In this document: piece by piece, positions 15,001 to 48,000 of the stretch
Position numbering within the stretch: position 1 is the stretch's first letter
Layout: each line of letters begins with the position of its first letter
Assembly (NCBI RefSeq): GCF_057098645.1
Contig: NZ_CM169472.1
DNA length: 64,000 nt
Strand: one strand, 5' to 3'
Made by a program: the position numbers

Positions 15001-18000
15001 TCGTCACTTCTGCCCCTGTCGCCTGGCATGTGCCGCACGAAAATATACCCGCGAGCAGAAGAGTTAATGCAGATTTCCCTTTCATAAAATATTCCATCAA
15101 TCGTTTATTAAAAGCGTAGATAACCACTTATTTAACAACTTGAAAATAAGGTATTTTACCTGGGTTGTTACAAAAGGATTGCATTGCGTAAACGCTTTTT
15201 ATTTACAAAAAAATGGGGAAGTGTTACAGCGATTGGGAAAAGTCTGAAGCGATTGAATTAAGATAATATAGAAAATCAGATACAGCAAAAATGGCAGATT
15301 GATGAGGTGAAGATAAATTGGAGCGGGCGAAGGGAATCGAACCCTCGTATAGAGCTTGGGAAGCTCTCGTTCTACCATTGAACTACGCCCGCTTCGAGAT
15401 GCGTAAGGCATTATAAACCTTACGCTCTCCTTAGCAAGTGCCGCGCTGCTGACTGCTGATTAATTCGCCATCAGCATTTTGGCTTGCTGCCCTGCGGCGG
15501 CAAGTAACGTAGCGGATCAATTGCCGTTGCACGGTAACGAATCTGGAAATGCAGGCGAACAGATGCCGCATCCGTGCTCCCCATGGTGGCGATTTTTTGC
15601 CCAGCCTTCACGCTTTGCCCATTATTTACCAGCATCGTGTCATTATGGGCGTAAGCCGTAATGTAATCTTCACTGTGTTTAATCATGATGAGATTACCGT
15701 AGCCACGCAGCTGGTTGCCCACATACACCACCTTTCCTGCACCCGCGGCGTAAATAGGTGTACCCCGTGGAGCAGAGATATCAATCCCTTTATTGCCGCC
15801 ATCTGCTGTCGAATACGGCATGATAACTTTCCCTGTCGTTGGCCATAACCAACAACGTTGTCCTACTGGCGGCCAGGAAGATTTCGGTACCGCTGATGAC
15901 GGTGTAACCGATGCGGTTTTGGTCGTTGATTTGGCGGTTGATTTACGTGTACTACTGCTACTTTTCGCCCCACCCAGTTTTAGTTTCTGACCAACTTCAA
16001 TGGTGTAAGGGGGGGAAATGCCGTTCAGTCGCGCCAGCTCTTTTACGCTGGTTCCCGTGGTGCGCGAAATACGATATAGCGTATCCCCCCGTTTCACGGT
16101 GTAAACGGAGCCGGAATACGTTCCTGTATCGGATGATTTGCTACCCGAACAGCCCGCCAAAAGCAGTCCAACCGATAACAACATCACGATACCCAGAGAT
16201 TTTTTATTCAGGCGTCCCGCACTCAAAATCTTTCCTCGCTTAAAAAACAAGACGCCATATCATAGCAGCCAGCCTCTTGATACCCAATCTCTTGCTTCTG
16301 GAAAAACGATGTAATAGAGAAAGAGGTTAATTTCATTTGGCAAAGGGAAGTATCATCAGCAAAATATTCACTGTAGAGGTATCGAATTTCCTGACTTTTT
16401 TACCCTATTTCCCATCCTGATGCGTAATAATCCCAATTTATCACATTGATTTTATCGCCACTCATATTGATACGTATCACTGCCCCTATTCAGAGTCCTG
16501 TTTCGTATCATATCTGTGTTTTTTTAACGTCATCACACTTCCTTCCTCCCCTAACGCTTATCGTCGTTTCTGGCGTAAATCTTGCCTGCTTAGACTAAAT
16601 CTTTGCCATAAGAACCAAATGTTCAAATCGAGGGGATTTCTATGGAAGCGCGGGAAGCAACCGCTACGGGTGAATCATGCATGCGCGTCGATGCCATTGC
16701 TAAGGTCACCGGGCGGGCACGATATACTGACGATTATGTTATGGCGGGCATGTGTTATGCGAAATATGTACGTAGCCCTATCGCACATGGTTATGCCGTA
16801 AGTATTAATGATGAACAAGCCAGAAGTTTACCAGGCGTACTGGCGATTTTTACCTGGGAAGATGTGCCTGATATCCCATTCGCTACAGCTGGGCATGCAT
16901 GGACACTTGACGAAAACAAGCGCGATACCGCCGATCGCGCACTGCTAACTCGCCATGTTCGTCATCATGGTGACGCCGTTGCCATCGTCGTGGCCCGCGA
17001 TGAACTCACGGCAGAAAAAGCGGCGCAATTGGTCAGCATTGAGTGGCAAGAATTACCCGTTATCACCACGCCAGAAGCGGCGCTGGCAGAGGACGCTGCA
17101 CCAATCCATAACGGCGGCAATTTACTGAAACAAAGCACGATGTCGACGGGCAATGTCCAACAAACAATCGATGCCGCCGACTACCAGGTACAGGGGCACT
17201 ATCAGACCCCCGTTATTCAACATTGTCACATGGAAAGCGTAACATCGCTGGCGTGGATGGAGGATGACTCGCGAATTACCATCGTTTCCAGCACCCAGAT
17301 CCCGCACATTGTTCGCCGCGTGGTTGGTCAGGCACTGGATATTCCCTGGTCATGCGTACGAGTCATCAAACCATTTGTCGGTGGCGGTTTTGGTAATAAA
17401 CAGGATGTACTGGAAGAGCCAATGGCGGCATTCCTGACCAGCAAGCTTGGCGGCATTCCGGTGAAAGTTTCCCTTAGCCGTGAAGAGTGTTTCCTCGCAA
17501 CCCGTACCCGCCACGCTTTTACTATTGACGGGCAAATGGGCGTGAACCGCGACGGAACATTGAAAGGTTATAGTCTGGATGTTCTGTCTAACACCGGCGC
17601 TTATGCATCTCACGGGCACTCCATCGCTTCTGCGGGGGGGAATAAAGTCGCTTACCTTTATCCTCGTTGTGCCTACGCTTACAGTTCAAAGACCTGCTAT
17701 ACCAACCTCCCCTCGGCTGGTGCGATGCGTGGTTATGGCGCGCCACAAGTCGTATTTGCCGTTGAGTCTATGCTTGATGACGCCGCGACAGCGTTAGGTA
17801 TTGATCCTGTTGAAATTCGTTTACGCAACGCCGCACGCGAAGGAGATGCTAATCCGCTCACGGGCAAACGTATTTACAGCGCAGGGTTGCCGGAGTGTCT
17901 TGAAAAAGGCCGGAAAATCTTTGAATGGGAAAAACGCCGTGCAGAGTGCCAGAACCAGCAAGGCAATTTACGCCGCGGCGTTGGCGTCGCCTGTTTTAGC

Positions 18001-45000: not shown

Positions 45001-48000
45001 TTTCACGATTTGTTGCCGGGTATCCCCCGGCAACGACTGAATGGTGATCATCCCAAACGGACACGCACTGACGCAGCTCTGACAGCCAATACAACGGGCA
45101 GAATTGGTCTGCACCACCTGCTCGCCCATCGCCAGCGCCCCCACGGGGCAAGCGCCAACACAAGGGGCGTTTTCACATTGGTGGCACATCACCGGCGCAC
45201 TGATGCAGTCCAGTCGCTGTACCTTCAGCCGGGGTAAAAAGATATCGGCATTCAACTCCTGTTCTGAAGGGTGAGCGACCACACAGGCCACTTCACAAGT
45301 ACGGCAGCCAATACAGTCAGCCGGATTAACGATAATTAACGATTTCATCACGATGCCTTCGTATCAAACAGAGTTAACATATCGCGCGCCGCCTGCCTTC
45401 CTGCGGCCATGGCAGTGACAACCAGATCCGCGCCATGAACTGCATCCCCACCAGCAAAGACTTTTTTCAGATGCGTCTGGGTAGGTAAATACCCAACGTC
45501 GCCGGTTTGAATCAGGCCCCATTTATCGAGTTTAATTCCGCTGCCCTGCAACCACGGCATGGCATGCGCCTGGAAACCAAAGGCCATAATGAGAACATCG
45601 GCGGGCAATTCAAACTCTGAACCCGCAACCGGACGAGGACGACGGCGACCATCCGGCCCCGGCTCACCCATGGCGGTACGAATCAGGCCCACCGCAGTTA
45701 AACGCCCATCTTCGTCACAAGCGATATATTGCGGCTGAACATTGAACTGAAACTCGACACCTTCCTCGCGCGCATTGACCACCTCTTTGCGCGAGCCCGG
45801 CATACTGACTTCATCACGACGATACGCGCAGGTCACGCTGGCAGCATTGAGGCGAATGGAAGTCCGCAAACAATCCATTGTCGTATCGCCACCGGCCAAT
45901 ACCACGACTCGCTTACCTTCCACGTCCGTCAGCGGATACTCTTCAGACTCCGGCAATCCCATGAGCTGGCGGGTATGGGCAGTCAGGAACGGTAGAGCCT
46001 GAATGACACCGGGCGCATCTTCATGCGGCAGATCTGCTCGCATCATCCCGTAAGTCCCCACGCCAATGAAAACTGCATCATATTCAGAAGTTAAATCGCT
46101 AAAGGTAATATCGCGGCCAATTTCACAGTTAAGATGAAAGTCGATTCCCATTGCGGTGAATATCTCTCGCCGCTGGCTTAATACCGTTTTATCGAGTTTG
46201 AAAGGAGGAATGCCAAAAGTCAGCATACCGCCAATTTCTGGATGGCGATCAAAGACATCGACCTGAACTCCTGCGCGCGCCAGAATATCAGCACACCCTA
46301 ACCCTGCAGGCCCAGCGCCAATCACCGCCACTTTCTCGATACGGGGAACAACTTTGCTGACATCGGGACGCCAGCCCATCGCCAGCGCGGTATCGGTGAT
46401 GTAGCGTTCCAGATTACCGATAGAGACTGCGCCAGAGTGATCTTTCAAAGTACATGCGCCTTCACAAAGACGGTCCTGTGGACATACCCTGCCGCAGATT
46501 TCTGGTAAGGAACTGGTCTGGTGGCAAAGTTCTGCCGCTTCAATAATATTTCCTTCCTGTACCAGACGGATGTAATCCGGAATAGCGTTATGCAGCGGGC
46601 AATGCCAGTTGCAGTTAGCTTTTTCGGCACAATAAACACAGCGGTCACTCTCATAAGTCGCTTGCAGTGGATCCAGCCCGCAATAGATTTCGCCAAAGTG
46701 GGTTTTCCGTTCACTCGCTGAAATTTTATCTGCGCCTTTACGCGAGTTAACGGGGAGCAACGCTGCACTGCGAGATGGCTGAGCGTCTGATGACGCTTTT
46801 CCTGCTGCCGTTTTGCGCTGGCGGGCCACCTTTATCTGCTGTAACCCTTTATCGTCCATCAGTCGTAACGCCTGTGTTGGGCAAACTTCAATACAGGCTT
46901 GCGTGCCGGAACTGCGCTGGTTACAAAGGTCGCATTTCTGCGCAATCGTATCGACCATCTCAACGACGCCAAAGGGGCAAGCGATTGCGCATCTTTTACA
47001 ACCAATACATTTTTGCTCGTCCAGTTGTACGCTATCGGACTGGAAAGTCAGAGCATTAACCGGACAAGCCGTAACGCAAGGGGCATTGTTGCAGTGATGG
47101 CAGGCCACCGGATTCGCAGCCAGGCCTTTCCCTACAACGTGGATACGTGGTCGAAAGTCACTGTAACTCAGCGGCCAGTTTTCTTGATTGTGTGCCACCG
47201 CACAGGCAATTTCACAAGCATGACAGCCTATACATTCCGCAGCTTCAGCAGCGATAAACTTATTCATTTGCATCCCTTTCATTTAATGAGTTATGTCTTC
47301 TCAAATTTCGCGATGCAATAAACGGGCATATATTAGGTAGCATGACCGTTTTAATTATAATTTTGCGACTGAGTTCAAATTATTGCCCCTCAATCTATGC
47401 CGCTTTCATTATTTCAACATTGCCGCCCCAAATAGCGCTATCCAGATAAAAACGATTAAATGCGAGAGTGCGACATGCCAGAATGATTAATGAAATATCA
47501 ATATGAGAAAATTACAGATAATTCCATTGTCAGGTTCTCTTCTCATTTTCGTGGTTTAAGCACGATTATGTGATTGCCTCCGCAATTCCTGTCTCTAACT
47601 CCCCTTCCTCGCAAAAACTGGCACTCCACGAGCATGTGTTTAGACAGTTTCATTAACGTAAACGGTTGCTTTTTACTCTGGCGGGCGAAAGGAGAAACAC
47701 TGATGAGCGCCATAGATTCCCAACTTCCCTCATCTTCTGGGCAAGACCGCCCAACTGATGAGGTTGACCGCATATTATCACCAGGAAAGCTGATCATACT
47801 CGGTCTGCAACACGTCCTTGTCATGTACGCAGGTGCAGTCGCTGTTCCTCTTATGATTGGTGACCGACTGGGCCTCTCAAAAGAAGCTATTGCGATGCTC
47901 ATTAGCTCGGATCTCTTTTGCTGCGGGATCGTCACATTATTGCAATGTATCGGTATCGGCCGCTTTATGGGGATCCGCCTGCCGGTGATTATGTCGGTAA

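Follow-up and report, generated by a model that had tools for sequence, protein, structure and literature searches.

The closest described system to the locus studied here is the gene cluster of the 2,8-dioxopurine pathway, or 'reductive uricolysis' (Liu et al. 2023/2025; Kasahara et al. 2023; Li et al. 2025). The locus lies in a stretch of 64,000 nucleotides of contig NZ_CM169472.1, assembly GCF_057098645.1 (hereafter the window), and consists of a large cluster of molybdenum-hydroxylase and purine-catabolism genes running from xdhA to uacT. It is the same locus with the same genes, and with a probability of about 0.9 it is the E. coli anaerobic purine-degradation locus, with the published pathway as its core. 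The locus was already known and its chemistry was resolved in 2025; what the present analysis adds is a conserved map of operators and promoters, a candidate sensing motif in the regulator YgeV and a set of strain-level defects.

The E. coli reactions were described by Li et al. (bioRxiv 10.1101/2025.05.19.654654; Life Metab 2025, PMC12507026). In that work, XdhD co-purified with YgfM and converted urate to 2,8-dioxopurine (isoxanthine) when NADH was added, as shown with proteins of the K-12 and Nissle strains, whereas the proteins encoded here carry the variants XdhD R279S and YgfK N883H. YgfK and SsnA jointly converted 2,8-dioxopurine to ureidomethylhydantoin, the hydantoin ring was opened by HyuA (by their figure legend, that of C. 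difficile), and YgeW plus phosphate, or the clostridial hydrolase UacY, stripped the 2-ureido group to give albizziin, from which YgeY and then YgeX led to pyruvate. Xanthine was not consumed by the ΔxdhA mutant, urate built up without isoxanthine in ΔxdhD, and no ureidomethylhydantoin was formed in ΔygfK (Li et al. 2025, PMC12507026). The same pathway was established in Clostridium sporogenes by isotope tracing and enzyme reconstitution, and YgeW and YqeA were tied to ATP formation (Liu et al. 2025, 10.1101/2025.04.24.650524). The metabolomics of anaerobic deletion mutants proposed in an earlier note on this DNA, made from the sequence alone, is thus reported in these two studies.

Applied to the window, these reactions would form a complete route. 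Guanine would be deaminated by GuaD, and XdhABC would carry out (hypo)xanthine oxidation, giving urate from xanthine. XdhD-YgfM would act as a molybdenum hydroxylase in reverse, in which NADH serves to remove the 6-oxo group of urate to give 2,8-dioxopurine; YgfK would then reduce the pyrimidine ring of this product and SsnA would open it to ureidomethylhydantoin. Opening of the hydantoin ring by HyuA would yield 2,3-diureidopropionate, one ureido group of which would be phosphorolysed by YgeW to albizziin and carbamoyl-phosphate, the latter being turned into ATP by YqeA. Finally, YgeY would hydrolyse the second ureido group and YgeX would convert 2,3-diaminopropionate to pyruvate and ammonia, with XanQ, GhxQ and UacT bringing in the substrates. 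All eight pathway enzymes (XdhD-YgfM, YgfK, SsnA, HyuA, YgeW, YqeA, YgeY and YgeX) are encoded intact and score above the cut-offs of their family models; the assignments used for the lower pathway are those of Li et al. 2025 and Liu et al. 2025.

The gene content was established from the PGAP annotation of strain RM9872, which is in register with the window only between 14221 and 48884, together with Pfam and NCBIfam searches; coordinates are collected in Table 1. The order is xdhA, xdhB and xdhC, followed by ygeV on the opposite strand; ygeW, dpaL/ygeX, ygeY, hyuA and arcC/yqeA; yqeB and yqeC on the opposite strand; mocA; ygfK, ssnA, ygfM and xdhD; xanQ, guaD and ghxQ; ygfS and ygfT on the opposite strand; and uacT. 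Uninterrupted open reading frames were found for 21 of the 22 cluster genes, the exception being uacT. Matches above the curated NCBIfam cut-offs were obtained for XdhA, YgeW, YgeX, YgeY, HyuA, YqeA, YqeB, YqeC, MocA, YgfK, SsnA, YgfM, XdhD, GuaD and YgfT. XanQ passed the NCS2 superfamily cut-off only, YgfS showed ferredoxin domains only, and GhxQ gave no NCBIfam match at E<=1e-30; the identities of XdhB and XdhC come from Pfam and annotation. Therefore, every gene named in the earlier note is present, although uacT is not intact, and the purine-catabolic unit that it described was found with its transporters, guanine deaminase, xanthine dehydrogenase and the carbamoyltransferase, lyase, hydrolase, hydantoinase and carbamate kinase set. 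The limits that it gave need correction at both ends: 16681 is the K-12 start of xdhA, whereas PGAP and the NCBIfam XdhA profile favour 16642, and an end at 47267 excludes uacT (47703 onward), which the same note lists.

The number of molybdenum enzymes was assessed by their domains. XdhABC carries MoCoBD_1/2, FAD_binding_5 and Fer2_2, and XdhD carries Fer2_2, Ald_Xan_dh_C and MoCoBD_1/2; among the cluster proteins scanned with Pfam, a set that left out the transporters and GuaD, molybdenum-cofactor domains were found only in XdhA and XdhD. XdhD also carries Glu606, the residue proposed to orient urate (Li et al. 2025, 10.1101/2025.05.19.654654 / PMC12507026). YgfT matched only Fer4, Fer4_20 and Pyr_redox_2 in Pfam, and YgfS only Fer4, so that ygfS-ygfT as a third molybdenum enzyme is ruled out by the lack of MoCoBD_1/2 or Ald_Xan_dh_C domains, in agreement with the NCBIfam and PDB matches. 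The molybdenum hydroxylases of the cluster are two, XdhABC and XdhD-YgfM, and not the three systems counted previously. The account in the earlier note, with three separate systems acting on substrates that had not been established and a route that stops at carbamate-level products, is consequently hardly credible any longer. It reflects the state of knowledge before 2022-2025, when the substrates were really unknown, and the names 'putative selenate reductase subunit YgfK' and 'putative aminohydrolase SsnA' still persist in RefSeq and NCBIfam. However, YgfS and YgfT have no molybdenum-cofactor-binding, FAD_binding_5 or 2Fe-2S domains, and the substrates of XdhD, YgfK plus SsnA, HyuA, YgeW, YgeY and YgeX were assigned by the 2025 reconstitutions (Li et al., Liu et al.). 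The proposed purine route itself stands, but its end products are pyruvate, ammonia, CO2 and ATP.

YgfK required a separate analysis, as its residues 1-450 gave no Pfam match even at E<=5. An AlphaFold model of this region, built on an alignment of 14 orthologues from the fetched loci (mean pLDDT 85.7, pTM 0.88), best matched the FMN barrels of dihydropyrimidine and dihydroorotate dehydrogenases (Foldseek probability 1.00, E ~1e-8). Residues 436-888 resemble GltD, NfnB and dihydropyrimidine dehydrogenase (DPD) by sequence, and the C-terminus bears 4Fe-4S motifs. Because it combines these three parts, YgfK is a rearranged DPD-like Fe-S flavoprotein, in agreement with the model of Li et al. The likeness extends to the reductive degradation of pyrimidines (PydA/DPD, the dihydropyrimidinase PydB, and PydC), where, as in this cluster, a flavin-dependent reduction of the ring is followed by hydrolysis of a cyclic amide: YgfK shares with DPD the FMN barrel, the GltD-like FAD/NAD(P)H module and the 4Fe-4S clusters, and SsnA and HyuA are amidohydrolases according to Pfam. 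In contrast, the FMN barrel is N-terminal in YgfK and C-terminal in DPD, the substrate of the cluster is a purine (2,8-dioxopurine), and two ureido groups are removed, one of them by phosphorolysis.

These data also bear on whether YgfK-YgfM-XdhD could be primarily a selenate reductase with a secondary link to purines. The PGAP and TIGRFAM names 'Se_sel_red_Mo', 'Se_sel_red_FAD' and 'putative selenate reductase subunit YgfK' point in that direction, as does the proximity of these genes to selenium-cofactor genes. Nevertheless, such a function is highly improbable as the main one, given that XdhD-YgfM with NADH turn urate into 2,8-dioxopurine and YgfK with SsnA carry the product on to ureidomethylhydantoin, that the ΔxdhD and ΔygfK deletions block the respective steps in vivo, that the FMN barrel of YgfK is of the pyrimidine-reducing DPD type, and that these genes co-localise with genes for ureide-cleaving enzymes across phyla.

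YgfS and YgfT are not molybdenum enzymes, and their domains suggest a part in electron transfer. In YgfT, a 4Fe-4S ferredoxin domain at the N-terminus precedes a flavoprotein like the small subunit of glutamate synthase; the nearest PDB relatives of YgfT are GltD, NfnB and the N-terminal half of DPD, and for its residues 1-105 HycB, a subunit of formate hydrogenlyase. By NCBIfam, the small ferredoxin YgfS is similar to the N-terminus of AegA, YgfT and HydN. YgfT-YgfS would thus be an electron-transfer module made of a HycB-like ferredoxin and a GltD-like NAD(P)H flavoprotein. YgfT/YgfS are reported to be linked to formate-dependent urate use, and the module probably passes formate-derived electrons into the four-electron reduction.

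The cofactor-maturation genes yqeB, yqeC and mocA noted previously were confirmed by NCBIfam equivalogs. MocA would convert the molybdenum cofactor to its cytosine dinucleotide form. YqeB and YqeC presumably install a labile selenium ligand together with SelD, whose gene lies elsewhere, a role that is presumed for E. coli and that in clostridia is backed by selD and yqeB mutants. The described system closest to this part of the cluster is the selenium-dependent molybdenum-hydroxylase maturation trait (Haft and Self 2008, PMC2276186), as yqeB and yqeC equivalogs adjoin molybdenum hydroxylases and mocA here too; the differences are that selD lies outside the window and that the evidence for selenium insertion is clostridial, and not for E. 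coli XdhA/XdhD. In a C. sporogenes selD mutant, the urate-reducing enzyme (DOPDH) and xanthine dehydrogenase were inactive, and every strain of a gut strain library that carries the urate cluster also has YqeB, YqeC and SelD (Liu et al. 2025, 10.1101/2025.04.24.650524). The labile selenium cofactor that the earlier note considered possible is thus supported for the homologous molybdenum enzymes of C. sporogenes, and for those of E. coli it is presumed. The co-occurrence with selD that it proposed to check was found in that library and also in E. coli, where 5,425 of 5,426 complete genomes carry selD, which makes co-occurrence within the species trivial. From this frequency, the source strain almost certainly has selD as well.

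The conservation of the cluster was analysed at two scales. Within the species, bases 16681-36680 are ~99.97% identical over their full length to E. coli O145 chromosomes, at least 80% of this segment being held by 5,153 of 5,426 complete E. coli genomes, and the segment 36681-49200, with a likewise O145 match, is held at the same coverage by 5,165 of them. The cluster is thus near-core (~95% of complete E. coli genomes) but not strictly the 'conserved core genome' that had been claimed, since some strains, ~5%, lack most of it. In the human faecal E. coli chromosome NZ_AP045766.1, IS1 replaces ~29 kb from mid-xdhB to the end of uacT (IS1-bounded deletion at locus positions 10462-12035); the whole cluster is therefore dispensable.

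Beyond E. coli, a scan for YgeW with one genome per species returned 80 loci, with identities of 67-93%, from Gammaproteobacteria, a Rhodocyclaceae genome, Bacteroidota, Bacillota, Spirochaetota, Elusimicrobia, Kiritimatiellae and other groups. The gene most often located within 10 kb of ygeW was ygeY (64/80 loci), followed by yqeA (42/80), ygeX (35/80), hyuA (34/80), ssnA (29/80), ygfK (25/80), an xdhA- or xdhD-like molybdenum hydroxylase (about 22/80) and ygeV (17/80), which was divergent from ygeW in most cases. These neighbourhoods agree with the published distribution.

How gut bacteria regulate these genes has been called poorly understood (Li et al. 2025, PMC12507026), and the published 2,8-dioxopurine work describes neither a YgeV operator nor a sigma-54 promoter architecture. 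The gene ygeV (isrR), missing from the earlier note, encodes a sigma-54 activator and lies in the middle of the cluster. Its product matched Sigma54_activat (7.8e-71), HTH_8 (1.4e-13), AAA_lid_14 and PAS_8 in Pfam. The published YgeV iModulon corresponds to the core operons of the cluster, and a genomic SELEX peak of RNA polymerase with sigma-54 (RpoN gSELEX) falls in the ygeV/ygeW spacer. In addition, ygfT expression is reported to be lower in a ygeV mutant, and ygfK and ygfT are reported to be induced by urate. YgeV is thus likely the activator of the cluster, whose core operons form one regulon.

To this expression evidence a shared DNA element can be added. When the six non-convergent spacers of the cluster were compared, more 12-16-mers were shared among them than in shuffled controls, the strongest word being ATATCAATATGAGAA, present in exact form at 22277-22291 (ygeV/ygeW) and 47495-47509 (ygfT/uacT). 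The core of the shared sequence is a 13-bp palindrome, TATCA-N3-TGATA, located 120-235 bp upstream of sigma-54-type promoters before xdhA, ygeW, ygfK and uacT. Allowing up to two mismatches, nine matches to the 13-mer were found in the window against 1.5 expected (0/100 shuffles reached 9), and the five best of them fall within promoter regions or directly upstream of these. The copy inside the 3' end of yqeC lies ~165 bp upstream of the yqeB start, and palindromes inside yqeC or just upstream of yqeB were also found in Edwardsiella, Serratia oryzae, Cedecea neteri, Pluralibacter and an Enterobacter. A further perfect palindrome, TATCATCTTGATA, is located inside ygeX at 24122-24134, 276 nt into the gene, and Kosakonia cowanii (L014, 11523) has the identical sequence equally far into the gene; this copy may reflect constraint on the coding sequence or regulation from within the gene.

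The promoters were less easily identified from their sequence than the palindrome. Counts of the sigma-54 consensus showed no enrichment in the window (2 matches vs 3.2 expected), and a crude weight matrix scored many intragenic sites equally high, so that candidates were discriminated only by position and cross-species conservation. By these means, sigma-54 candidates (GG-N10-GC, -24/-12) conserved before ygeW, ygfK, xdhA and uacT were selected. A sigma-54 promoter for xdhABC is reported to have been predicted earlier. The CRP-like site in the ygeV/ygeW spacer fits glucose repression and the Crp site mentioned for this spacer (Li et al. 2025, PMC12507026), and CRP control would be superimposed at ygeW. 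Terminator-like hairpins were predicted by a consensus scan at several points, those after ygeW and ygeY being strong; as both lie inside what is usually drawn as a single operon, they could be attenuation points or sub-operon boundaries. A scan of the whole window with Rfam at gathering thresholds detected only a tRNA-Gly, and no riboswitch in the large intergenic regions.

Table 1. Coordinates of cluster genes, candidate regulatory elements and predicted hairpins in the window.
Feature	Position	Strand	Basis or remark
xdhA control region	16439-16586	+	two palindromes and sigma-54-like element
xdhA palindrome TATCACATTGATT	16439-16451		motif scan
xdhA palindrome TATCAATATGAGT	16460-16472	-	motif scan
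xdhA sigma-54-like element TGGCGTAAATCTTGCC	16571-16586	+	motif scan
xdhABC, xanthine dehydrogenase	16642-20304	+	PGAP, Pfam
XdhA, Mo subunit	16642-18939	+	NCBIfam XdhA equivalog 1484.6 bits vs cut-off 916
XdhB, FAD subunit	18950-19828	+	Pfam
XdhC, 2Fe-2S subunit	19825-20304	+	Pfam
Terminator-like hairpin, xdhC/ygeV	20311-20334	-	consensus scan, predicted
ygeV (isrR), sigma-54 enhancer-binding protein, GAF-PAS-AAA+-HTH	20344-22122	-	Pfam and AF2 model
Weaker palindrome copy GATCATGATGATA near ygeV start	22180-22192		motif scan
Candidate YgeV operator before ygeW, TATCAATATGAGA	22278-22290		part of 15-mer in common with 47495-47509
CRP-like site TGTGA-N6-CCACA, ygeV/ygeW spacer	22433-22448		consensus
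ygeW sigma-54-type promoter TGGCACACTTATTGTT, -12 TTGT	22492-22507	+	214 bp downstream of palindrome
ygeW-ygeX-ygeY-hyuA-yqeA, lower pathway	22601-28729	+	NCBIfam equivalogs all above cut-off
YgeW	22601-23788	+	TIGR03316 above cut-off; phosphorolyses 2-ureido group to carbamoyl-phosphate (published)
Terminator-like hairpin after ygeW	23795-23816		consensus scan, predicted; strong
YgeX (dpaL)	23846-25042	+	TIGR03528 above cut-off; diaminopropionate to pyruvate and ammonia (published)
YgeY	25100-26311	+	TIGR03526 above cut-off; albizziin hydrolysis (published)
Terminator-like hairpin after ygeY	26329-26348		consensus scan, predicted; strong
HyuA	26364-27749	+	TIGR02033 above cut-off; opens ureidomethylhydantoin (published)
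YqeA (arcC)	27797-28729	+	TIGR00746 above cut-off; ATP from carbamoyl-phosphate (published)
Terminator-like hairpin, yqeA/yqeB	28916-28941		consensus scan, predicted
yqeB	28950-30575	-	TIGR03309 417 vs cut-off 220
yqeC	30623-31393	-	TIGR03172 241 vs cut-off 73
Palindrome TCTCACATTGAGA inside 3' end of yqeC	30736-30748		motif scan
mocA, molybdenum cofactor cytidylyltransferase	31496-32074	+	TIGR03310 above cut-off
ygfK control region	32126-32323	+	palindrome and sigma-54-type promoter
ygfK perfect palindrome TATCATAATGATA	32126-32138		motif scan
ygfK sigma-54-type promoter TGGTGCGATTGTTGCT	32308-32323	+	conserved in 6 taxa
ygfK-ssnA-ygfM-xdhD, upper pathway	32396-40522	+	NCBIfam
YgfK	32396-35494	+	TIGR03315 1775.6 vs cut-off 835
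SsnA	35497-36825	+	TIGR03314 740.3 vs cut-off 455; adjoins ygfK
YgfM, FAD subunit of XdhD	36876-37655	+	TIGR03312 486.3 vs cut-off 241.5
XdhD, Mo/Fe-S hydroxylase	37652-40522	+	TIGR03313 2122.8 bits vs cut-off 1101.9
Terminator-like hairpin after xdhD	40532-40547		consensus scan, predicted
xanQ-guaD-ghxQ: xanthine symporter, guanine deaminase, guanine/hypoxanthine transporter	40687-44824	+	PGAP; NCBIfam guanine deaminase and NCS2 models
Terminator-like hairpin, ghxQ/ygfS	44830-44853		consensus scan, predicted
ygfT-ygfS, Fe-S flavoprotein and 4Fe-4S ferredoxin	44860-47267	-	Pfam; NCBIfam YgfT equivalog 1494 bits vs cut-off 1154
ygfT/uacT divergent control region	47496-47634		palindrome and sigma-54-like element
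ygfT/uacT palindrome TATCAATATGAGA	47496-47508		motif scan
uacT-facing sigma-54-like element TGGCACTCCACGAGCA	47619-47634	+	motif scan
uacT, urate/H+ symporter, truncated	47703-48950	+	comparison with RM9872

The same arrangement was found in other Gammaproteobacteria. In 17 gammaproteobacterial loci other than that of the window (358,687 bases), the form T[A/C]TCA-N3-TGA[G/T]A had 41 matches against 1.16 expected, and the palindrome was present exactly once within 600 bases upstream of ygeW in all 17. A sigma-54-type element, TGGCA(C/T)-N5-TTG(T/A/G), followed 176-235 bp downstream of this palindrome in all 18 taxa. Before ygfK, the promoter TGGTG(C/T)GATTGTTGCT and a palindrome 153-182 bp upstream of it were kept in 6 taxa, and the xdhA layout of palindrome plus sigma-54-like element recurred before xdhA-like genes in Cedecea and Erwinia. 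In the 62 non-gammaproteobacterial loci the palindrome was not enriched overall (8 matches vs 4.5 expected), and convincing copies were seen only in Desulfosporosinus (before ygeY) and in the Rhodocyclaceae genome (before ygeW), both with the layout of palindrome plus sigma-54 promoter. In Desulfosporosinus sp. OT (L054), positions 8264-8458 upstream of ygeY contain the palindromes TCTCAAAATGAGA and TCTCAATTTGAGA together with TGGCATTGTTCTTGCA, a sigma-54 promoter of canonical form. The operon of this organism opens at ygeY and adjoins the gene of a YgeV-like activator with 35% identity.

Because of its position and its conservation, the TATCA-N3-TGATA palindrome is most likely the YgeV operator; no earlier report of such an operator was found in the literature searched. 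On this basis, xdhABC, ygeW-yqeA, ygfK-xdhD, uacT/ygfT and probably yqeB would constitute one sigma-54 regulon driven by YgeV from this element. That the palindrome, as yet a candidate operator, serves instead another protein (IHF, Fur, FNR or some other repressor), or binds no protein, was judged unlikely, though with appreciable weight left to it. In favour of this, TATCAA as a half-site is close to the IHF core WATCAA, the ygfK copy TATCATAATGATA is reminiscent of a Fur site, a perfect copy sits within the coding sequence of ygeX, and Aeromonas lacus has the motif while ygeV was not within the DNA fetched. On the other hand, the two-fold symmetry is kept while the central 3 bp vary freely (TCTCAGTTTGAGA, TATCAAACTGATA), which fits a dimeric helix-turn-helix protein; the TTR part of an IHF site is missing, an FNR site (TTGAT-N4-ATCAA) has the opposite order of half-sites, and CRP does not fit either. 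The distance to sigma-54 promoters, which need an upstream activator, is fixed, and the palindrome travels with a YgeV-like gene into Desulfosporosinus. From the order of half-sites and the freely varying central triplet, a site for IHF, FNR, CRP or Fur was considered unlikely.

Independent regulation had been named beforehand in the earlier note as what would refute a functional linkage, and on this point the cluster is divided: the core operons share the palindrome, the sigma-54-type promoters and the YgeV iModulon, whereas xanQ-guaD-ghxQ and mocA do not. It is very unlikely that chance or history alone placed the units of the cluster side by side, each with its own regulation and under no common control, even though xanQ-guaD-ghxQ and mocA have neither palindrome nor a place in the published iModulon list, terminator-like hairpins part several units, and the genes are arranged differently in other bacteria. 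Palindrome and sigma-54-type promoters are common to xdhA, ygeW, ygfK and uacT, the core operons co-vary as one iModulon, ygeW is syntenic with other pathway genes across the 80 loci, and urate is reported to induce ygfK and ygfT. The feeder genes xanQ-guaD-ghxQ, with no YgeV-type palindrome in the 40523-40686 region upstream of xanQ, are probably controlled separately from the regulon that YgeV would drive.

With respect to the signal, the first 268 residues of YgeV gave no family match in Pfam except a short PAS. An AlphaFold model of residues 1-268 (13 orthologues, pLDDT 77.7) resembles the GAF-PAS sensor of DhaR, an E. coli sigma-54 activator with the same GAF-PAS-AAA+-HTH layout. Among the 13 orthologues, C84, C87 and C93 are invariant and C109 is nearly so, all in the GAF-like domain. 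The spacing C-x2-C-x5-C is that of the cluster-binding cysteines of FNR. These residues, with C109, thus form a possible Fe-S or metal redox-sensing site, which, if true, would explain anaerobic control. A database search with residues 1-160 returned only fragments of close relatives and nothing on wider distribution. A sigma-54 activator that senses redox via a 4Fe-4S cluster, OrpR, has been described (PMC8359166); the cysteines of YgeV are in a GAF-like and not in a PAS domain as in sensors of the OrpR type, and the cofactor is hypothetical.

A comparable regulon has been predicted in Clostridiales, where the sigma-54 activator DioR would control dpaL, ygeW-ygfK-ssnA-ygeY, yqeB/yqeC and pbuX (Nie et al. 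2019, PMC6615313). As with YgeV, a sigma-54 activator is placed over the same gene set, although the two activators are only ~35% identical, and the Desulfosporosinus layout suggests an operator in common with the clostridial DioR regulon. It is possible, but still doubtful, that one conserved device (YgeV/DioR, an FNR-like cysteine site and the 13-bp operator) switches the regulon under redox or oxygen gating from Enterobacterales to Clostridia.

Several points weigh against this overall picture. The substrate assignments all come from two papers of 2025, of which one is still a preprint, and the role of YgfT/YgfS is a proposal. Selenium is raised only in the discussion by Li et al. 2025 (PMC12507026), and dependence on it is presumed for the E. 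coli enzymes. At the level of regulation, YgeV binding to the palindrome is deduced from position and conservation only; no canonical sigma-54 promoter was found facing ygfT or yqeB, with only weak ATGCCC-N5-TTGCA-like candidates there, and before ygeW the promoter reads TTGT where TTGC would be canonical. As xanQ-guaD-ghxQ and mocA lack the palindrome and are outside the published YgeV iModulon list, the 'supercluster' is not a single regulon. Finally, YgeV has also been described as IsrR, an indole-responsive virulence regulator of enterohaemorrhagic E. coli. The window comes from an enterohaemorrhagic lineage, for which the IsrR role is relevant.

The source strain differs from the published cluster by a frameshifted uacT, the change G458A in YgfT and seven other private amino-acid changes. 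Compared to RM9872, a 35-bp segment of uacT, GCTGTAACTACACCACCAACCGTTACAACCTCTAT, is perfectly duplicated in tandem (48850-48884 and 48885-48919), which shifts the frame after codon 394 and leads to a stop at 48948-48950, giving a protein of 415 aa instead of 482. The alignment of UacT stops at 363/407 of TIGR03173 and 377/415 of TIGR00801, so that the last ~40-45 positions of the NCS2 profiles are lost. A 46-mer across the duplication junction was matched in none of 5,426 complete E. coli genomes; either a mutation private to this strain or an artefact of assembly could account for the duplication. Because of the frameshift, UacT is probably inactive in this strain. Over the 34.6 kb from 14221 to 48884, 12 substitutions separate the window from RM9872 (8 non-synonymous, 3 synonymous and 1 intergenic). 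The private change G458A of YgfT (window 45895) changes the second Rossmann motif, VVVLGGGDTTMD (VVVL[G>A]GGDTTMD), at its first glycine, the other private changes being xdhA A468V, yqeB V198A, ygfK N883H, xdhD R279S, ghxQ I212S and G223S, and uacT E70D. Together, the uacT frameshift and YgfT G458A might reflect an ongoing loss of the urate-uptake/formate branch from the source strain, but random recent mutation or sequence error explains both changes equally well.

Outside the cluster, the tRNA-Gly (15322-15392, minus strand) lies between an ETT2 remnant/GH15 region and actS-xdhA, at the border of a variable island. The degraded ETT2 type III secretion island (~3070-11550, annotation transferred from RM9872) comprises a partial secretion gene, sctN, an EscV-family gene with a frameshift, a gatekeeper gene, an sctC interrupted by a stop codon and a helix-turn-helix regulator, and is followed by a GhoT/OrtT-family toxin gene (~11896-12075). 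Two inverted copies of the insertion sequence IS2, 100% identical and each with a 5-bp target duplication, were found at 4451-5782, disrupting the ETT2 secretion ATPase gene sctN, and at 12890-14221, disrupting a glycoside hydrolase family 15 gene; neither site is occupied in RM9872, and the pair flanks ~7.1 kb of ETT2 remnant in a composite-transposon-like arrangement. On the other side of the cluster, prfB (~51554-52652, minus strand, from the RM9872 annotation) has its ordinary programmed +1 frameshift.

The significance of the pathway as such is already published: gut bacteria that bear the cluster clear a substantial share of human urate, and an engineered E. coli Nissle over-expressing it lowered serum urate in uricase-deficient mice (Li et al. 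2025, PMC12507026). The operator and promoter map provides a concrete, testable account of the native regulation of the cluster, and the presence of the genes in the species is no guarantee of function, as strains may carry a broken urate importer or no cluster at all. If the conserved YgeV/DioR device is real, purine breakdown would be directly gated by the redox or oxygen state.

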